A stretch of DNA of 25,068 bases from a virus (lineage: Duplodnaviria; Heunggongvirae; Uroviricota; Caudoviricetes), in the IMG/VR virus record IMGVR_UViG_3300032250_000269, positions 1 to 25,068 of that record; one strand, given 5' to 3'. This document shows, in pieces, positions 13,134 through 23,632 of this stretch (positions are counted from its first letter, which is position 1; the number at the start of each line of letters is the position of its first letter). Under the pieces are notes generated by a model. That model searched no databases, was not told the origin of the DNA, and worked only from the letters and a program-made list of their open reading frames with translations. Position numbers and translations under genes: made by a program.

Positions 13134-13141
13134 TATAAATA
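13134..13141 (+). promoter_or_regulatory. T4-type late promoter
   Basis: Exact TATAAATA immediately after the terminator. Confidence 0.85.
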
Positions 13142-13167: not shown

Positions 13168-13590
13168 ATGACTAATTGGATAAAAAACAAGTTTGAGAAT
13201 GAAATTAAAAGTTTCATGGTTATTACAGATAAAGTTGTGTCTAATATAAGTCAAAAAGAGATTAAAAAGAAGATTGTTGATCAGATGATTGACGATTTAA
13301 AAAAGAAATATAACTCTAAAAATCTTCAAGACCTTAGACCAATTACATGGAGAAGTCTTGAAGGAAGCCAATCGTGGAACGCAGACACCATGGTGAATAT
13401 ACAAAAATCTCTTAGAAATGCAGATGAAATTAAAAAAATATATCAATCAATTTATAATATGGTATCCAACAAATCAGTTAATGCTCCAATCATCATGATG
13501 CAGAATAATATTGGTATGCTCATATCAGGAGAGCATACTCTTATGGCATGTAGACTTTTAAACATTCAACCAAAGGTAATAATGATATGA
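13168..13590 (+). CDS. Hypothetical protein with degenerate ParB/Srx-like C-terminus
   Basis: ATG 13168 after GAGGA (13147 is too close to the promoter). APIIM...MLISGEHTLMAC.LL resembles ParB-N PIIV...DGxHRxxA. Confidence 0.6.
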   Translation: MTNWIKNKFENEIKSFMVITDKVVSNISQKEIKKKIVDQMIDDLKKKYNSKNLQDLRPITWRSLEGSQSWNADTMVNIQKSLRNADEIKKIYQSIYNMVSNKSVNAPIIMMQNNIGMLISGEHTLMACRLLNIQPKVIMI

Positions 13591-14021
13591 AAACCCTTAA
13601 ACAATTTCTAGACGAAGCTGAAACAACAAAGGTAACTATGTTTAATCGTGATTTGGATAATGATGAAATTGAAACGGGTGCTACTGTCAGTAGATATGGT
13701 AGACCAATGGAACGAGAGCATTCACAGGATAAAGTGAAGATGATACCATTGAATAGAACGATTCGTCACGAGACACCAGAAAAAACAGCACGTAATACAG
13801 CTACACCTGAAAGTGAAAAAGCAGTACAGGGTATTATGTCTGATATCAAGAAGAAAAAGGATATTGAGCCGATTCTAGTGCGTAGGAAAAAAGGTGGTAC
13901 TTATCAAATAATGGATGGTCATCATCGTCTTGAAGCACATCTGAGAATGGGATTAAGACATATTCCGGCGAGAGTAATAGACGCTAAGAATGTCAAATAT
14001 GATGGCACTGAAGAGAAATAA
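13587..14021 (+). CDS. ParB/Srx-like domain protein with a capsid-targeting-sequence-like N-terminus
   Basis: IEPILVRR...YQIMDGHHRLEAHLRMGLRHIPARV; N-terminus MKTLKQFLDEA. Confidence 0.8.
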   Translation: MKTLKQFLDEAETTKVTMFNRDLDNDEIETGATVSRYGRPMEREHSQDKVKMIPLNRTIRHETPEKTARNTATPESEKAVQGIMSDIKKKKDIEPILVRRKKGGTYQIMDGHHRLEAHLRMGLRHIPARVIDAKNVKYDGTEEK

Positions 14022-14033
14022 GGTTATTAAATA

Positions 14034-15890
14034 ATGGCACAGTATAACGCTAATACATCATCATTTCTAGGACAAGCAAAGTCGCTCTTTGAAATTAATA
14101 TGCTTGCTACTGAAAGTGGACTGCCTGTTACTAATACTAATCCACTACCCGTTACACTAGGTTCTGAAAATATTACAATTACAGGTAATGTGAATGTTGG
14201 TACTACAGTTGAAGTATCAAGTACACCTGAAAATCCAGTACACAATCACATTACTGAAGTCGGTACAAGTGGTGCACTAGCAGTTTCATATATGCCTATT
14301 GGTGGAAATGTAGTTGTTACATCTGGTTCTGTTAATGTAGGTAATTTTCCAGCATCGCAGAATGTTATTGTTACAAATACAACACTAGCAGCCAACGTTG
14401 TCGGAGTCGTTAATGTAGGTAATATACCTGCATCACAGAATGTCGTAGTCACATCAATTAATTCTGGTAATCTTTCTATCTACTCTGGTAATGTTACTGT
14501 GAGTGGATCGGTTAATGTAGGTAATATACCTACCACACAAAATGTTTTCATCACTAATACTATTCTTGCTGCTAATGTAACTGGTGTTGTCAATGTAGGT
14601 AATATTCCTGCTAGTCAAAATGTAGTTGTTACATCTGGTAATGTTGCTGTTACTGGTATAGTGAACGTTGGTAACATTCCCGCCTCTCAGAATGTTGTTG
14701 TAACATCAGGTAATTTTGCATTTGATCCTGTAGCATCAGATGCGTTTGGTAGACACAGAGTATCATTACCGCTAACTCTATTTGATTCTTCTCATCGATA
14801 CAAAGACAATGGATTATGGAGTACATCTAATACTTCTGGTACTACCTATGAGTTTAGACCTAATGAAGGTTTAGTAAATCTTAATCTTCCCACAACAGCA
14901 AATGCAGAAATCATTCGAGAGACTAATAAAGTATTTGCATATCAACCCGGTAAATCACTTCTTGTTCTTAATACATTTGTCCCAGAACCACCAAAGCCAA
15001 ATCTTCGTCAGCGTATAGGTTATTTTGGTGCACAAAATGGAATCTATTATGAGCTAGAAGGAAATACGGCATACTTTGTAGAAAGATCGTATGTCACAGG
15101 TTCTGTAGTAGAAACACGAGTAGCGCAAGCAGATTGGAGTGAAAACACTCTATCCAGTTTTGATAAGAGCAAAGCTCAGATTTTCTGGATGGATATTGAA
15201 TGGCTTGGTCTCGGTACTGTTCGTTGCGGTTTTGTTATTAATGGTAAGTTTATTCACTGTCATTCGTTCCACCATGCTAATTTAATTACTTCGACTTATA
15301 TTACTACAGCATCACTGCCTGTTCGTTATGAAATTAAAAATACAGGCACAACTGCAAGCGTTTCTACTATGAAGCAAATTTGCTCGTCTGTAATCTCTGA
15401 AGGTGGGTATGAACTGAGAGGTATTCAACAAGCAGTTGGCACCGCTATTACTGCCCCAAAAACTCTTGCAACTGCTGGTACGTTTTATCCTGTCGTTGCT
15501 TTAAGGTTAAAATCAACGGCATTAGATGCTATCGTTATTCCTACTGCCATCTCTATTTTAGGTGTTGGTGATTCTACATATAATTGGCAGATTAGATCAA
15601 ATCTGACTACTACTGCTGGTTCATGGGTAAGTGCTGGTGCAGATAGCTCAGTCGAATACAATTTAACTGGAACTGGTATTACTGGTGGTAGAATATTGGC
15701 CAGTGGCTATCTTGATAGCTCTAAAAACAATATTGCGGGTATTGATATTTTGAAAGAAGCACTGTTTAAGTTTCAAATGGAAAGAAACGGTTTAACTGGT
15801 ACATCATTTGAAATTGCTATTGTTATTACAGCAGCCAATGATAACCGTACTGTACATGCTTCAATGGATTGGGAAGAAATTTCTAGGTAA
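14034..15890 (+). CDS. Putative virion structural protein with internal repeats
   Basis: Gly/Thr/Val/Asn-rich and beta-prone; DAFGRHRVSLPLTLFDSSHRY, YQPGKS and DIEWLGLGTVRCGF recalled from T4-like structural proteins; late context. Confidence 0.7.
   Translation: MAQYNANTSSFLGQAKSLFEINMLATESGLPVTNTNPLPVTLGSENITITGNVNVGTTVEVSSTPENPVHNHITEVGTSGALAVSYMPIGGNVVVTSGSVNVGNFPASQNVIVTNTTLAANVVGVVNVGNIPASQNVVVTSINSGNLSIYSGNVTVSGSVNVGNIPTTQNVFITNTILAANVTGVVNVGNIPASQNVVVTSGNVAVTGIVNVGNIPASQNVVVTSGNFAFDPVASDAFGRHRVSLPLTLFDSSHRYKDNGLWSTSNTSGTTYEFRPNEGLVNLNLPTTANAEIIRETNKVFAYQPGKSLLVLNTFVPEPPKPNLRQRIGYFGAQNGIYYELEGNTAYFVERSYVTGSVVETRVAQADWSENTLSSFDKSKAQIFWMDIEWLGLGTVRCGFVINGKFIHCHSFHHANLITSTYITTASLPVRYEIKNTGTTASVSTMKQICSSVISEGGYELRGIQQAVGTAITAPKTLATAGTFYPVVALRLKSTALDAIVIPTAISILGVGDSTYNWQIRSNLTTTAGSWVSAGADSSVEYNLTGTGITGGRILASGYLDSSKNNIAGIDILKEALFKFQMERNGLTGTSFEIAIVITAANDNRTVHASMDWEEISR
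14331..14705 (+). repeat. Five copies of a VNVGN[IF]PxxQNVxxT peptide repeat
   Basis: Read directly from the translation; copies 1-2 and 3-4 form a larger duplicated unit; synonymous codons have diverged. Confidence 0.9.
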
Positions 15891-15901: not shown

Positions 15902-16195
15902 ATGAAAACACTAAAAAATTTCATTTCAGAATGTGTTCTTACAGAACGTGGTGAAGACGATAAAGGACATTATCGTGCAACAGAAGATGGTGCTGGTCTT
16001 ACAAAGAAGGGCGCAGAACACTTTGGTATAAAGACTGCTGTAACAAGAAAGAATGTCGATCCTGACTCTGAGGCAGGAAAACGCCGTAAGTCATTCTGTG
16101 CAAGAATGTCTGGTATGCCCGGTCCTATGAAAGATGAAAAAGGTCGTCCTACACGTAAGGCAATGTCTCTAAAAAGATGGCGTTGTAAAGTTTAA
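15902..16195 (+). CDS. Small basic protein with a capsid-targeting-sequence-like N-terminus
   Basis: Starts MKTLKNFISE; GAGLTKKG, RRKSFCARMSG and SLKRWRC motifs (recalled as DUF6321-like, unverified). Confidence 0.75.
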   Translation: MKTLKNFISECVLTERGEDDKGHYRATEDGAGLTKKGAEHFGIKTAVTRKNVDPDSEAGKRRKSFCARMSGMPGPMKDEKGRPTRKAMSLKRWRCKV

Positions 16196-16425: not shown

Positions 16426-18357
16426 ATGAACACACCTGAAAACATTAGAAATAAAGCATATAGTGCAGCCCGTCAACTCGTGAGAAATCGTCTTGCTGAG
16501 AACGCTGGCACTGCTTATGAAAATCTTGACCCAACTGAAAAAAAGGGAATTGATAGAGCCGTGGATATAAGAGAAGCTACTATTAAAAAGATCGCACTCA
16601 AGTTAATTCCGCAGATGATCAGCCGTAGTTCTTCAGAAAAAAGAGAATTCAACGAATCACTTAATGAAAAGTTTGAGAAAGCAATCAAGCCTTTAAAGAA
16701 AAAAGAAGAAAAGGGCGCTGCAAAGTCTCCACATATTGAAATTCACAACACATTTGGTGAAGAAGTTGCATTAAACAGTGCAGTATATAAAGCACTCATT
16801 AAGAAATCTAATAGTTCTGGTGTCGATGTTGATATTCTTGGTGAAGTATATAATCGTGGTATGAATGTATGGAATGAAAATACAAACGTATCCCAACAAC
16901 AATATGCATTTGCTCGTGTGAACTCATTTATCAATCAGGGCAAGACATATTTTAAAGAGGATTCAGATTTGGCAGAAGAAATTAAAACTCCTTCTAGAAG
17001 AAAGACTAAAAGGTTTATTGAAACAGAGCATGATGTAAAGGCTGGTCAGACATATGGAGGTAAACCATATTCAAGTCATCCAAAAATGGTAGAAAGAAAT
17101 ATTAAGAAATTTTTTGGTACTAAAGGAAAAGCAAGACACGCAAGAATTGCTGCACTTCTACACGATGTAGTAGAAGATACTCCTACTACACCTGAAGCTC
17201 TTCTTAAGAAGGGGCACCATCCTGACATAGTTAAAGCAGTTCAGCTTTTAAGTAAAGACAAAACAAAATCATACGAAGAGAATATTGAAAATATTGCAAG
17301 TGGAACTTCTGACGCACATCATATAGCTAAGATGGTTAAGTATGCCGACAATTATGCAAACTTTAGTGCTAAACCAAAGCCTGAGTGGGATAATGAAAGA
17401 ACCGCCAAGCAAAAGCAAAAATATTACGATAGTATGGTGAGATTAGGTCGTGAGCTAGGTGTCAACCATCACGAAAAAATTAAAGACATGCATAATGGCG
17501 TTAATATAACTGAAGAAATAAAACTTGATGAAGAAAGTGAAACCTTCAAAAAAGGCGATAGAGTTTTTCTAAAAACAAAAACTTTCTCAAACTCCCCACA
17601 CAGCGGTACAGTCATAAAAGTCACTCCTACACACGTTCATCTTAGAACTTTAGGTGGCACTGGATTATATAAGGCACCACACTCTTCAGTAACTAAAGAC
17701 AGCAAGAAATCACATCTTCATATGACTTATGGTAATAAGAATGAAGAAGTAGATAAATCTAAGCCATCAAACCGTGAATATGGTACTAATAAATTAAATA
17801 AGATTTATAAGAAAGATACTCCCGGTCAGAATCTAGACGAATCTTTCAACATGGCATTTGACTATCAAGGAAAGCCAATAGTGGCACCTACAGCACACGA
17901 GCTAATGATGAAGACACAGGGTGGGTTTGCTCATCACAATGACGTACAGGACGTTATGAACGTCAAGTCGATCAAGGAACAAATTGAAAAGGCTTTTCAG
18001 GCTACCATTCTTGAAGAAGACAAAGATAAACTATCTATCTCTTTAGACAGTTTGATCAACATGGTCAATGAAGCATTCACTACTATTGCAAGCATCAAGT
18101 CATCAAACATTGAACGTGATGCATGGTCACAGGCTGAAATCCTTAAGCTAGAACGTTACATTGAATCAGTTGCTGCATACATCAACAATATGGATGAAAC
18201 TGTTAGAAGTGGTGAAGCTCATGGAGAAGTTGTTCCTGCACACACAATCGTAAGTCAAAAAACAGGACAATCAATTTCCATTCCTGCTAAGACAAAAATG
18301 GTCAAGACAAATAAAGTTGTTCTTCATCCATATGATAATCCATTTGATGGCAAATAA
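16426..18357 (+). CDS. Large modular protein with a SpoT/Mesh1-type HD hydrolase domain, a DUF5824-like module and an SH3/KOW-like module
   Basis: ATG 16426 after GAGGA. PYSSHP, AALLHDVVEDT, VKAVQLLS, MVKYADNYAN (HD); ILGEVYNRG...YAFARVNSF; FKKGDRV..GTVIKV. Confidence 0.8.
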   Translation: MNTPENIRNKAYSAARQLVRNRLAENAGTAYENLDPTEKKGIDRAVDIREATIKKIALKLIPQMISRSSSEKREFNESLNEKFEKAIKPLKKKEEKGAAKSPHIEIHNTFGEEVALNSAVYKALIKKSNSSGVDVDILGEVYNRGMNVWNENTNVSQQQYAFARVNSFINQGKTYFKEDSDLAEEIKTPSRRKTKRFIETEHDVKAGQTYGGKPYSSHPKMVERNIKKFFGTKGKARHARIAALLHDVVEDTPTTPEALLKKGHHPDIVKAVQLLSKDKTKSYEENIENIASGTSDAHHIAKMVKYADNYANFSAKPKPEWDNERTAKQKQKYYDSMVRLGRELGVNHHEKIKDMHNGVNITEEIKLDEESETFKKGDRVFLKTKTFSNSPHSGTVIKVTPTHVHLRTLGGTGLYKAPHSSVTKDSKKSHLHMTYGNKNEEVDKSKPSNREYGTNKLNKIYKKDTPGQNLDESFNMAFDYQGKPIVAPTAHELMMKTQGGFAHHNDVQDVMNVKSIKEQIEKAFQATILEEDKDKLSISLDSLINMVNEAFTTIASIKSSNIERDAWSQAEILKLERYIESVAAYINNMDETVRSGEAHGEVVPAHTIVSQKTGQSISIPAKTKMVKTNKVVLHPYDNPFDGK

Positions 18358-18401: not shown

Positions 18402-18845
18402 ATGGATGAACTAATTGAACAAATGAAAAAACTATTGGCTGACGTGTATGCTTATGGTCTAAAGGCACAGAATTTTCATTGGAATGTTGAAGGGCCAGAT
18501 TTTATTCAGTATCACGGTCTTTTTTCGGATGTATATCAAAAAGCTGCTGGTGATGTGGATAAAGTTGCAGAACATATTCGTGCACTAGATGCCTATGCAC
18601 CAGCTTCATTTAGTCGTTTTCAAGAACTAACATCAATTAAAGATGAGACTACAATTCCAATCGCAATTGAAATGGTCAATCGTCTCTATCAAGATAACAT
18701 GAAGGTTCTTACTACTGTTAAGACTGCTTGTGCAACTGCTGAAGAACTAAAGCAACACGGGGTTCTTAATTTCCTAGAAGGTCTTATTGACGAATATGAA
18801 AAACAAGCATGGATGCTTCGTTCAACTGTAAAGAGAACACACTAA
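18402..18845 (+). CDS. dps: Dps-like ferritin-family protein
   Basis: KAQNFHWNVEGPDFIQYHGLF..VY.....DVDKVAEHIRAL ferroxidase signature; C-terminal EKQAWML. Confidence 0.9.
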   Translation: MDELIEQMKKLLADVYAYGLKAQNFHWNVEGPDFIQYHGLFSDVYQKAAGDVDKVAEHIRALDAYAPASFSRFQELTSIKDETTIPIAIEMVNRLYQDNMKVLTTVKTACATAEELKQHGVLNFLEGLIDEYEKQAWMLRSTVKRTH

Positions 18846-19450: not shown

Positions 19451-19488
19451 TTTATAACAAATAAATAACATATCAATTGGAGAAGAAA

Positions 19489-21129
19489 ATGATTAAGAAT
19501 AACAATAATTTTGACAGCCTATCAAAAAATCTTTTGAATGACGTTCGTGCCGTTATGGAAGGCAAGAAGAGTTGCAGTAAAGATTGCAAGTGTGAAAAGT
19601 GCGAAACAGAAGAAAAGGGCGAAGTTAAGGAAGCCAAGAAGATGAAGGGTGAAGACCCTTGTTGGAAGGGTTATGAGATGGTTGGCACTAAAAAGGGTAA
19701 AGGCGGCAAGGAAGTTCCTAACTGTGTACCAGAAGAAGCAGAGGTCAAAGCTGAAGCTTATGATGAGACTGCTGTAAACAAGGCAATCAAGTCCTCACGT
19801 CAAAAGATCGGTGGTAGAGAAGCAAAGAAAATTCATGCTCTCCTAAAGGGTTCTTCTGGTTATAAGCCAAAGTGGACAAAAGATGAAGCTGATGCACACA
19901 CTGCTAAGGTGAAGGCAGACAATAAGGGTGTCAAGGAAGAAACTGAAGAGCTTGATGAGATTTCACAGAAGCTTGCTACAGACTATTTTCATGCAAAACA
20001 AGACAAGGCACGTAAGGATTTCATGCGTGGTAGAGCAACTAACAAGACAGGTGTTATGCTTGCTAAGAAAAAGATTGAAGGTACTGCAAAGGTTCCTGCT
20101 ACCAATGAAGAAGTAGAGGTTGTTGAGGCTAAAGAAAGCCCAATTGCTGGTACAAGAAAAATTTCTGTGCATCAAGGTGAAAATGGTCATCATGCAGAAA
20201 TTCGTTATAATCCAGAATATAAAGAGTATCAAGTTCACCACTATGAAAATGGTAAGCACATGGGTGAAGGTCCAGTGTCTTATCATGACACAAAGGCTGA
20301 TGCCAAGGAAACTGCTGAGTACGAAATAAAGCACTATCGTCCTAAGAATGGTTCTCTTCATAAAGAAAGCGTTGAAATTAACGAAGAAGTTGATTTTGCT
20401 AAGGTAAGAAAGCAGTTTGACAGAAACGAAGACAGAAACGAACATTCAAAGAATGCTGTTCTTATTGCTAAGCATTGTGGATCAGAAGTAGATCACAAAG
20501 AAGCCAAGGACATTATGAAGAAGCACAATGAGCTTGGCCATCTTGCTCCTTCTCTTATGGCTCGTCGTTCTGCTCTTTATGATAAGCTAAAGAAGACTGA
20601 CAACTATAAGAAGATTTTTCCTGAAGAAAACGTTAAGGAAGAACTTATTGGTAAGCAAAAGAACATTGACAAAAATAATAATGGAAAACTTGACAAGCAA
20701 GATTTTGAAATGCTTCGTAAGAGCAAGGGTAAGTGGAAGTCTTCTTCATATAAGAATTCTGATGGTAAATGGGCTAGCAAAGATGTTAAAGAAGAAACCC
20801 TTGAGGAAAAATTAAATCCTTCAATGGGCAGTGCTAAATACATCGATGATTTTATTAAATCAAAAGACCCACGTTTTGAAGGTAAGACTAAAAAAGAGCG
20901 TATTAAAATGGCACTAGGTGCTTATTATTCTGCTAAGAATGAAGAAGTTGAACAAGTTGATGAAGCTTATGGTGATAAAAGAGATTATAAACCACATCGT
21001 ATTAGTGTAAATGGTAAATATGTTGCTACTACAACATGGGCCAAAGATGCTAGGGAAGCAGAGAGAAGATTTCTTAAGCAACATCCAGATTTTAGAAGCG
21101 CAAGAATAACAGTCGCTAGAGAACCCTAA
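19489..21129 (+). CDS. Lys/Glu-rich modular protein, candidate head-internal polyprotein
   Basis: ATG 19489 after GGAG. About eight basic modules separated by acidic linkers (VKEA, VKEETEELDE, EEVEVVEA, ESVEINEE, EENVKEE, VKEETLEE, EEVEQVDEA). Confidence 0.8.
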   Translation: MIKNNNNFDSLSKNLLNDVRAVMEGKKSCSKDCKCEKCETEEKGEVKEAKKMKGEDPCWKGYEMVGTKKGKGGKEVPNCVPEEAEVKAEAYDETAVNKAIKSSRQKIGGREAKKIHALLKGSSGYKPKWTKDEADAHTAKVKADNKGVKEETEELDEISQKLATDYFHAKQDKARKDFMRGRATNKTGVMLAKKKIEGTAKVPATNEEVEVVEAKESPIAGTRKISVHQGENGHHAEIRYNPEYKEYQVHHYENGKHMGEGPVSYHDTKADAKETAEYEIKHYRPKNGSLHKESVEINEEVDFAKVRKQFDRNEDRNEHSKNAVLIAKHCGSEVDHKEAKDIMKKHNELGHLAPSLMARRSALYDKLKKTDNYKKIFPEENVKEELIGKQKNIDKNNNGKLDKQDFEMLRKSKGKWKSSSYKNSDGKWASKDVKEETLEEKLNPSMGSAKYIDDFIKSKDPRFEGKTKKERIKMALGAYYSAKNEEVEQVDEAYGDKRDYKPHRISVNGKYVATTTWAKDAREAERRFLKQHPDFRSARITVAREP

Positions 21130-21810: not shown

Positions 21811-22194
21811 ATGCACCATGAAAAACTTGACAACAACAACTTTTTATTATTCGCTGCAAAGCATTATGATAATCCTCAGTGTCACGATACAACAGAATTT
21901 TATGATGATCTAAAGAGATTTAAGTATCTAAAAAGGTTGTTTGTTAAATATCAAGATTCTGGCGAATTACGTGAGCGTTTAATTCTAAATCACTTGATCA
22001 TTCTATATAATGTTTTTGGAGAAGCAGCAACAAGAATGTTGTTTCTAAAACTTGAAGGGCATTACCAATATTTAAAACCATTTGTTGTTATGCTTGGTTT
22101 TATGCCAGAAAAAATAACAGTCGAAAACAAAATTTATTATAGTAGCGATATTGATATGGATATGCATATTGTACAGGTTTTAAGGAAGATTTAA
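21811..22194 (+). CDS. Hypothetical protein of a recurring T4-like family
   Basis: NFLLFAAKHYDNPQC...EFYDDLKRFKYLKRLF...LILNHLIILYNVFG. The ORF-track start at 21757 lies in or before the terminator. Confidence 0.85.
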   Translation: MHHEKLDNNNFLLFAAKHYDNPQCHDTTEFYDDLKRFKYLKRLFVKYQDSGELRERLILNHLIILYNVFGEAATRMLFLKLEGHYQYLKPFVVMLGFMPEKITVENKIYYSSDIDMDMHIVQVLRKI

Positions 22195-22553
22195 TGGCAA
22201 AGAATATAGATAAAGGCGAATATGATTATGAAGGTGATATGGCCATGTCACAACTTAAGAGCATTATGTCAAATGCTAAAAGACTTCATGATATGCTTAG
22301 TCCAAATACAAACTTGCCTGAGTGGGTTCAATCTAAAATCACACTAGCAGAAGATTATATCAGTACTGTTACAAACTATATGAGCAGTCAAAAAGTTAAT
22401 GAAGATGCACCAGCAAACGCAACTGGTCCTGCTGTTTTTGGAACTAATGGTGAAGAAAATCCTCCAATGGGGCGTAAAGCAATTCAAAAATATAAAAAGA
22501 GCAATCAGCCACTTAAACGTAAAACACTAGAAGATTTTAAAAAAGGCACTTGA
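22194..22553 (+). CDS. Two-module hypothetical protein
   Basis: EYDYEGDMA...LPEWVQSKITLAEDYI module, then a VNE linker, then a DAPANATG module. Confidence 0.75.
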   Translation: MAKNIDKGEYDYEGDMAMSQLKSIMSNAKRLHDMLSPNTNLPEWVQSKITLAEDYISTVTNYMSSQKVNEDAPANATGPAVFGTNGEENPPMGRKAIQKYKKSNQPLKRKTLEDFKKGT

Positions 22554-22554
22554 T

Positions 22555-23076
22555 ATGTTTGGTTTTACAATTCCACTTCCTATTAGACTTTTAGCCACAA
22601 TACTTCTTTTATTTGGTGTTGCTACTTTAGGTTATATTAAAGGTTCTGCACATGCAGATATTGAGCTTGCCAACTATCAAGCAAAAGCAGAGAAACAAAT
22701 TAATGAACTTGAAAAAAAGAATTCTCAAATTTCTAGTAAAGTTGTAATACAATATGTTGATCGTGTCAATACAATTCACGATAAACAAATCATTTATAAG
22801 ACATTAATATCAAAGACAGAACCACAATACGATCTATCAAAAGCATGGATTGAATTGCATGATGCTTCTGCAAGTCTAAGCATCCCCGATACAACACTAG
22901 TTTCTGATAAATCTCCATCAGGTATTATGGATATCACTGCGCTTGACGTAGTGGTTGGCAACTATGCAATATGTCATGATAATAAAGAACAGCTTATAGC
23001 ATTACAAAAGTGGATCAGAGATAATCAAAAAACAATTGATGATGCTAATATTAAGAAATCAAAGGAAAAGAAATAA
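22555..23076 (+). CDS. Putative inner-membrane spanin (Rz-like)
   Basis: Single N-terminal TM (LLATILLLFGVATLGYI), coiled-coil, NYAICHDN..QLIALQKWI; followed directly by a lipoprotein gene. Confidence 0.7.
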   Translation: MFGFTIPLPIRLLATILLLFGVATLGYIKGSAHADIELANYQAKAEKQINELEKKNSQISSKVVIQYVDRVNTIHDKQIIYKTLISKTEPQYDLSKAWIELHDASASLSIPDTTLVSDKSPSGIMDITALDVVVGNYAICHDNKEQLIALQKWIRDNQKTIDDANIKKSKEKK

Positions 23077-23249
23077 TGAAAAAATTGATAGCAATCCTTT
23101 CTTTAGTTTTATTATCAGCATGTGCCGGAAAGACACACTTGGTTCCACAACCATACATGCCTTCTCCACCAGAAATTCTTATGAAAGCACCAAAAGAACT
23201 AAATACAATTAAAACTAATGAACAAACAATAAATACAGTAGCAAAATGA
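23076..23249 (+). CDS. Putative outer-membrane spanin lipoprotein (Rz1-like, 57 aa), absent from the ORF track
   Basis: MKKLIAILSLVLLSA-C lipobox, Pro-rich PQPYMPSPPEILMKAPKEL; TAATG coupling to the upstream gene. Confidence 0.8.
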   Translation: MKKLIAILSLVLLSACAGKTHLVPQPYMPSPPEILMKAPKELNTIKTNEQTINTVAK

Positions 23250-23383: not shown

Positions 23384-23632
23384 ATGAAAAACATGATTAA
23401 TTACATCAAGGATGTTCTTGCAGATGGTGCGGGTTCTCCTTCAACTAAAAGAGTTGTCACATTTATCTTTGCGCTTTTGATTGCAATTGAATTTATCGCC
23501 AATTTGTTTTATGGATATCAAGTAGATAAAGAACTTCTTGATTCTGTAATGTATGTTGTGATCGCAGGATTTGGTTTCACTGGTATGGAGAAGTTTGCTC
23601 CTAAAAACCTATCAGAGGCACCAGTACAATGA
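23384..23632 (+). CDS. Putative holin (two TM segments)
   Basis: SPSTKRV followed by two hydrophobic segments, GFTGMEKF; adjacent to the spanin pair. Confidence 0.55.
   Translation: MKNMINYIKDVLADGAGSPSTKRVVTFIFALLIAIEFIANLFYGYQVDKELLDSVMYVVIAGFGFTGMEKFAPKNLSEAPVQ

Follow-up and report, generated by a model that had tools for sequence, protein, structure and literature searches.

A bead-on-string gene in a T4-like phage: a candidate capsid-loaded polyprotein of exchangeable mini-domains

Why would a phage join small, unrelated modules into a single protein, and is that protein meant to be taken apart again? The question is raised by P0001, a gene in a 25,068-nucleotide stretch (the window) of the IMG/VR virus record IMGVR_UViG_3300032250_000269. 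A first-pass annotation had described it as a bead-on-string candidate polyprotein, with about eight basic modules separated by acidic linkers of the xxE type, and proposed that cleavage by a gp21-like head protease yields many small head-internal peptides, making the locus equivalent to the internal proteins IPI-III of phage T4. Comparison of P0001 with its relatives leads us to favor, with somewhat better than even confidence, the reading that it is a capsid-loaded polyprotein processed into many pieces. The 99-kb record that contains the window comes from an uncultured T4-like myophage, is about 56% complete, and was assigned to this group because of its replication genes. The window carries genes for a DNA polymerase, a UvsX-like recombinase, a gp41-like helicase, a gp61-like primase, sugar and methyl transferases, and a spanin pair. 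An identical 546-aa product of P0001 is present in public gene calls, and the orthologs of P0001 share the N-terminal start MIKNN.

P0001 consists of a leader and a Cys knuckle, each of 24 residues, followed by eight modules of 40 to 86 aa (Table 1), and its parts are joined by Glu-rich linkers that terminate in [V/I/L]-x-Glu. All the units that the annotation had named are present, namely PCWKGY..VPNCVP, YDETAVNKAI, ISQKLATDY, ESPIAG, the EF-hand-like DKNNNGKLDKQDF, and KLNPSMG..KERIKMALGAY, and so are the linker endings: VKE at residues 48, 150, 384, and 435, LDE at 157, VVE at 213, INE at 299, LEE at 440, and VDE at 492. If all junctions were cut, the pieces would be 24 to 86 aa long, most of them with a pI of 8.2 to 10.2, and the double sites at 150/157 and 435/440 would release two acidic peptides of 7 and 5 residues. 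The description of the modules as basic fits most of these fragments but not the His-rich piece 214-299, which has 9 His and, at a pI of 6.3, is near neutral. The loop of module 6 matches the pattern D-x-N-x-N-G, and the module aligns with EF-hand_7, EF-hand_1, and EF-hand_6 at E values of 0.003 to 0.005 (17 to 18 bits; cut-offs are 25 to 30). When P0001 was searched whole or module by module, no Pfam family reached its cut-off. Its PHROG matches are to four families of unknown function, each on a single stretch.

We built an AlphaFold2 model of P0001 with a 60-sequence alignment. The whole protein has no global fold (pTM of 0.25), the beads are confidently predicted (pLDDT of 75 to 91), and the low-confidence segments, at residues 80-89, 145-155, 203-216, 287-299, 381-384, 428-442, and 485-497, cover every junction. 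No fold crosses the linkers in this model, in keeping with the bead-on-string description, and AlphaFold2 rules out a fold that spans them. The full-length model has no match in the PDB at an E value of 0.001 or less. Module 4 reaches a pLDDT of 84.5 and a pTM of 0.71, and its His and Gly residues are invariant. Fold searches with this module gave weak and mixed matches (KTSC domain, E of 2.8e-3; AcrF1, E of 0.3; 6d7k, Z of 6.3; AP2, Z of 6.0; DarA_C, TM of 0.61 in the Atlas), and for this reason we assigned it no function from its fold.

The junctions share a motif that recurs at the starts of unrelated beads. P0001 contains 13 hydrophobic-x-Glu sites, 9 of which fall within the 26% of residues that have a pLDDT below 50 (binomial P of 0.0013). 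Taken alone, P0001 is weak evidence for enrichment of the motif; the comparative evidence is strong. We counted [V/I/L/M/F]-x-Glu across distinct sequence contexts, against a background of 2.5% per position. The motif stands exactly before the module start in 13 of 13 contexts for module 3, 23 of 28 for module 5, 61 of 62 for module 7, 44 of 70 for module 6, and 24 of 31 for module 8, and it lies within 3 residues of the start of module 4 in 106 of 109. At 349 distinct internal junctions, a module begins directly after the motif. The logo of these junctions is rich in Glu from P8 to P4, with Val at P5/P6, Leu, Ile, or Val at P3 (35, 33, and 28%, respectively), any residue at P2, and Ala, Lys, or Glu at P1′. 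Of the six copies of an extended form of the linker motif in the whole 99-kb record, five fall in the P0001 gene and its neighbor at 16426-18357. The junction motif agrees with the rule for the T4 head protease gp21, which cuts after L/I-x-Glu (PMC9026906). It also agrees with the cut site of the capsid protein in the relatives, where L-G-E/A and L-M-E/S align to L-T-E/A of T4 (the slash marks the cut).

The beads behave as separable units in evolution. P0001 gave 1,211 word-index hits and matched 2,965 representative clusters at an E value of 1e-3 or less. Among about 58 orthologs, the leader stays first and module 8 stays last, while the inner modules are reordered, lost, and inserted: modules 4 and 5 exchange order, module 1 relocates, modules 3 and 5 are lost, and foreign modules are added, which follow the same linker grammar. 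Distant proteins carry subsets of modules 1, 4, 6, and 7. Lone modules also exist as proteins of 94 to 105 aa, such as the 94-aa P0136, which is module 5 alone, and module 4 stands alone in other phages as well. Searching each module separately was the check that the first-pass annotation had proposed for shuffling, and the expected pattern of reordering, loss, and insertion with a persistent linker grammar is what we found; conservation among the relatives is not simply collinear.

The same pattern is visible in the DNA. In the relative L001, where modules 4 and 5 have traded places, homology to the P0001 gene falls into blocks that end no more than a few codons from the linkers, and in L002 a 35-nt linker stretch is repeated at a second junction. 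In the relative L061, module 1 lies inside the counterpart (5820-5918 of L061) of the 643-aa chain gene that neighbors P0001, and modules therefore move between two adjacent genes. Linker codons differ within the P0001 gene, P2 and P3 are variable, and the Glu is fixed, which argues that the constraint acts on the protein; linker DNA may also help module exchange. A tblastn search of GenBank phages found no match for the whole of P0001, module 4, modules 7-8, or the chain of L006. Of the queries used, only the DNA of module 1 and the P0098 chain matched cultured phages. The freshwater cyanophage BUCT-ZZ01 (L067; ON615601.1, 33658-35496), a cultured phage whose host is Synechococcus PCC 7942, encodes a 612-aa chain (UTS51990.1) that bears module 1 and sits two genes after the large terminase; this phage also encodes an S77 protease.

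Several members of the class are tied to the phage head. In T4, portal gene 20 is followed by core genes 67 and 68, then by protease gene 21, scaffold gene 22, and capsid gene 23. The products gp22, gp67, and gp68 are each cut into several fragments (PMC9026906). On four contigs, a chain with the same beads and linkers lies between Portal_T4 and Peptidase_S77, which is the place of T4 genes 67 and 68 (Table 1). One further chain is located between a small-terminase-like gene (a weak Pfam match) and the large terminase gene. In 12 chains, the N-terminal domain aligns with the small portal-adjacent gene of the slot contigs, and this domain matches T4 gp67 with an hhalign probability of 86.5% (E of 4.6e-6). 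In L006, a small gp67-like ORF (..KQEIAQSLY..) at 1200-1400 and the first part of the 722-aa chain gene overlap in different reading frames. We rejected a second N-terminal class (MSTRKMIEESINKNP..) as gp67-like (probability of 0.1%), and we also rejected homology of the slot chains to T4 gp68, for which the best E value, 0.22, was not significant.

A second tie comes from the leaders. The T4 capsid-targeting sequence (CTS) is MKTYQEFIAE (PMC8442874). CTS-like starts, taken as M[KR][STKQ][FLI] with the first motif at residue 6 to 16, are found in 25 of 175 distant chains, a count that is a lower bound for the class. Beads 1, 4, 6, and 7 have the same start residue whether they follow a CTS-like leader or an internal linker. 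Module 7 comes directly after a CTS-like leader in many relatives, and in gp34 of the cultured Paraglaciecola phage PANV1 (MW805361.1), which has an S77 protease, such a leader is followed immediately by two copies of module 1. A look for virion proteomes of chain-bearing phages found none, and the PANV1 paper includes no mass spectrometry. In the relative L007, the gene directly 3′ of a Dps-like gene is a chain with a CTS-like leader. At least five other genes of the 99-kb record itself carry CTS-like N termini; besides those in the window (Table 1), three further CTS-like starts lie along the record at 76278, 80245, and 87703 of G000. A natural control is provided by a complete 35-kb phage that matches neither the T4 portal family nor the S77 family: its bead 4 is encoded alone, adjoining a portal-like gene, and this lone bead has neither leader nor linker and starts close to the predicted cut site.

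From these observations we propose a mechanism. The chain would be expressed late, alongside the head proteins, and its N-terminal amphipathic leader would carry it into the scaffolding core of the prohead. There, a T4-type S77 (gp21-like) head protease would cut after the Glu of the exposed [V/I/L]-x-Glu linker ends, and the cuts would release about nine mini-proteins of 3 to 10 kDa, mostly basic, together with a few short acidic peptides. The beads would accompany the DNA, first in the head and then into the host, serving as ready-made effectors or as DNA-binding counter-ions. Linker DNA probably aids bead exchange as well. Because each bead has the same cut junction, beads could be exchanged, reordered, and moved between genes without loss of processing. 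As to timing, the sequence ATAAATA occurs seven times in the window, always on the + strand, and five of the seven copies, at 13135, 16201, 18363, 19461, and 21134, lie just 5′ of gene starts; this suggests that these five boxes are T4-type late promoters amid replication genes. As to the pieces, a HicA toxin bead is found in relatives of P0001, and the neighboring chain has an HD-hydrolase bead. Stand-alone podophage proteins of about 61 aa have a fold that matches part of the model, probably bead 4. The HicA bead, the HD hydrolase, and the lone beads of podophages favor host-acting effectors over scaffold debris.

A number of observations weigh against this proposal. The N terminus of P0001, MIKNNNNFDSLSKNLLNDVRAVME, is not CTS-like, and reading its leader as a short gp67 was rejected, with hhalign probabilities of 1.3% against T4 gp67 and 0.4% against the gp67-like profile. 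The P0001 locus is flanked by the gp41-like helicase and gp61-like primase genes and lies outside the head operon. We found no match to the S77 protease or to the capsid protein gp23 in the 99-kb, about 56% complete record, so this phage's own protease is an assumption; relatives that bear chains do encode an S77 protease. No late-promoter box is present upstream of the ortholog in L001, and conservation of the box was rejected. The junction of module 2 is V-K-A-E in most orthologs, with 0 of 27 contexts showing the exact motif. In a composition-keeping shuffle, the motif in the linkers of P0001 reached a P of 0.049, which is marginal. Some beads also occur in 40- to 45-kb phages, mostly podoviruses, and the beads themselves are therefore not head-specific. 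Finally, pieces of 3 to 10 kDa could leave the head, as fragments of the T4 scaffold do, and a single cut would leave an acidic tail on each bead. The idea of a cargo polyprotein draws good support from comparison, the class being tied to the prohead by the four slot chains, the 12 gp67-like N termini, and at least 25 CTS-like leaders; P0001 itself has a leader unlike a CTS, a place among replication genes, and a record that has neither protease nor capsid gene.

Three other explanations have to be weighed. The one that survives best, although we consider it unlikely, is that P0001 is packaged but stays essentially whole, as a flexible "polyvalent" protein of several domains from which no more than the leader is removed, with the acidic linkers acting only as spacers between the basic beads and holding them in solution. 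There is precedent for polyvalent phage proteins with 2 to 15 domains, of which some enter the head unprocessed (PMC5512222); in T4, each internal protein is cut once only (PMC8442874); and the marginal enrichment of the motif beyond composition in P0001 would suit a spacer. A spacer, however, needs no invariant Glu with Leu, Ile, or Val two residues earlier, placed exactly at the starts of unrelated beads in 349 contexts. Nor does it account for beads that begin at an identical residue after a leader of the removable type or after a linker, for double sites that would excise acidic peptides of 5 to 7 residues, or for beads that are found alone in other phages.

It is less probable, in our judgment, that P0001 is not in the virion at all and is instead a cytoplasmic mosaic of host-takeover domains, in which the linker is mainly a recombination joint and its likeness to a protease site is incidental. 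The position of the gene among replication genes would fit such a protein, as would the homology blocks that break at linkers and the linker stretch repeated at another junction of L002. Differing linker codons with free P2 and P3 and a fixed Glu, however, point to constraint on the protein; relatives of P0001 are found in the head operon, with a gp67-like domain, or with CTS-like leaders; and a role in recombination is compatible with cutting. We give the least credit to the view that P0001 belongs, like gp67 and gp68, to the accessory proteins of the prohead core or scaffold, which builds or sizes the head and is then degraded and expelled as fragments with no delivery: the four relatives in the gene 67/68 slot, the gp67-like domain on 12 chains, and the exit of most T4 gp22, gp67, and gp68 fragments from the head (PMC9026906) speak for it, but a structural role is hard to square with beads that close relatives freely gain, lose, and reorder, toxin and enzyme beads (HicA and HD hydrolase) do not fit, stand-alone bead 4 and a C-terminal bead of P0098 occur in 35- to 45-kb phages, mostly podoviruses, in which a core is unexpected, the one complete lone-bead phage record checked has no S77 match, and the P0001 gene sits outside the head operon.

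How would a capsid-loaded, processed P0001 compare with known systems? The CTS-targeted internal proteins of T4 resemble the predicted pieces in being small, mostly basic, and packed in the head alongside the DNA. Their loading depends on an N-terminal peptide, which gp21 cuts off after hydrophobic-x-Glu, and many relatives of P0001 have a CTS-like leader. Each T4 internal protein, however, has its own gene, its own CTS, and one cut, whereas in P0001 nine units share one gene, one leader, and about ten internal putative sites. The P0001 leader, moreover, has 24 residues compared to about 10 for the CTS, which it does not resemble. T4 gp67, gp68, and gp22 offer another parallel to the proposed processing, multi-fragment cleavage by gp21, and four related chains occupy the gene 67/68 slot while 12 start with a gp67-like domain. 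Hydrophobic-x-Glu motifs number 4 in gp67, 7 in gp68 (which has a basic tail at its end), and 13 in P0001. Unlike P0001, gp67 and gp68 are small, at 80 and 141 aa, and have no folded exchangeable beads; P0001 in turn does not lie between portal (gene 20) and protease (gene 21) and has no detectable homology to gp67 or gp68. The claimed equivalence to IPI-III is thus best kept as an analogy: the internal proteins are closest by proposed function, but gp67 and gp68 are closer by position and by homology of the class.

Two further groups of proteins invite comparison. In the giant phages phiKZ, 201phi2-1, and SPN3US, many head-internal proteins (inner-body and ejection proteins) are described as being cut after Glu, at short motifs, by a T4-type protease, some of them multiply, with products that are ejected into the host (PMC9026906). 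On the published descriptions, cutting there mostly strips propeptides from large single proteins, and neither a standard linker nor freely shuffled mini-domains are described. The polyvalent proteins of phages and conjugative elements (Iyer et al. 2017, PMC5512222) combine unrelated domains in one chain; the prediction is that they are packaged and travel with the DNA, and proteolysis sometimes frees their domains. They carry 2 to 15 unrelated domains per polypeptide, and P0001, similarly, has nine independently distributed modules. They are, however, large proteins built of recognizable enzymatic conflict domains, often with a peptidase of their own, whereas the beads of P0001 are 40 to 86 aa long, none reaches a Pfam cut-off, and there is no built-in peptidase, with HicA and HD beads found in relatives; in P0001 the head-maturation protease, acting at a standard linker, would make the putative cut. 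In the literature searched, we found no description of linker-joined, shuffled cargo chains.

Table 1. Features of the P0001 locus and of related chains in the portal-protease slot (positions are those of the window unless a contig is named)
Feature	Position	Strand	Description
Late-promoter-like box AATAAATA	19460..19467	+	21 nt 5′ of the P0001 ATG
Ribosome-binding site GGAG	19479..19482	+	Read in the sequence upstream of ATG 19489
Bead-on-string gene P0001	19489..21129	+	546 aa; ATG 19489, stop 21127-21129 (included)
Leader	19489..19560	+	Residues 1-24; amphipathic helix (AlphaFold2 helix 13-23); V-M-E end; invariably N-terminal in orthologs
Cys knuckle	19561..19632	+	Residues 25-48; C-x3-C-x-C-x2-C; V-K-E end; low pLDDT
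Module 1	19633..19752	+	Residues 49-88; PCWKGY..VPNCVP (57-81); matches phrog_9737, phrog_4359, phrog_36547; chain position varies among orthologs
Module 2	19753..19959	+	Residues 89-157; helical; double site V-K-E / L-D-E at end; N-terminal junction V-K-A-E
Module 3	19960..20127	+	Residues 158-213; helical; presence varies among orthologs
Module 4	20128..20385	+	Residues 214-299; His-rich sheet-plus-helix mini-domain; phrog_7884; most widespread bead
Module 5	20386..20640	+	Residues 300-384; helical bundle; presence and order vary among orthologs
Module 6	20641..20808	+	Residues 385-440; EF-hand-like loop; double site V-K-E / L-E-E at end
Module 7	20809..20964	+	Residues 441-492; KLNPSMG..KERIKMALGAY
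Module 8	20965..21126	+	Residues 493-546; alpha/beta mini-domain, pLDDT 84-90; invariably C-terminal in orthologs
ParB-like protein	13587..14021	+	CTS-like N terminus MKTLKQFLDE
DUF6321 protein	15902..16195	+	CTS-like N terminus MKTLKNFISE
Neighboring second chain	16426..18357	+	643 aa; DUF5824 and HD-hydrolase beads; same linker grammar
Stand-alone bead gene	22194..22553	+	119 aa; 58% identical (E 5e-31) to internal bead of P0098
Portal_T4-Peptidase_S77 slot chain	contig L030		453 aa
Portal_T4-Peptidase_S77 slot chain	contig L006		722 aa
Portal_T4-Peptidase_S77 slot chain	contig L069		P0134, 483 aa
Portal_T4-Peptidase_S77 slot chain	contig L070		P0098, 776 aa

The surroundings of P0001 hold further genes (Table 1). 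P0001 and the neighboring 643-aa chain have no modules in common. DUF6321 also occurs on P0103, a 456-aa chain with two copies of module 1. A Dps/ferritin-like gene (18402-18845) lies close 5′ of P0001, with one 213-aa ORF intervening, and a gene of this kind is near the chain in L007 (directly upstream) and in L061 (one gene between) as well. The 618-aa product of 14034-15890, amid the replication genes, matches phrog_1645, annotated as "virion structural protein" (E of 3e-139). A 173-aa Rz-like i-spanin and, after it, a lipoprotein-like candidate o-spanin of 57 aa with an LLSAC lipobox are encoded at 22555-23249, and the small membrane protein encoded at 23384-23632 may be a holin. The DNA polymerase ORF at 139-1911 (590 aa) covers only positions 306-852 of its profile, which may mean that the polymerase is split or that the window begins downstream of the part encoding its N terminus.

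The head cargo known from other phages is loaded gene by gene, as in the case of the T4 internal proteins, Alt, the Dar proteins of P1, and the giant-phage ejection proteins. If P0001 is a polyprotein whose standard linker can be cut, it would represent a different mode of cargo loading, in which one leader brings in many payloads in fixed proportion and payloads can be swapped with no need to re-evolve a targeting signal. It would also explain the mosaicism of these genes and mark about 3,000 "hypothetical" clusters (at 50% identity, with P0001 alone as the query) as likely head cargo, in both role and location. The natural leaders and linkers suggest themselves for packing several foreign proteins into T4-type capsids. 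A broader view, which we offer tentatively and hold with less than even confidence, is that a plug-and-play cargo system, grown from prohead core proteins, operates in the T4-like phages of lakes and seas. The linker would serve as both protease site and recombination joint, and thousands of mini-proteins, including toxins, alarmone hydrolases, and domains that are separate small genes in podophages, would be loaded by a leader, cut in the capsid, and injected. If this is true, such phages would possess a rapidly changeable set of ready-made "early" proteins.

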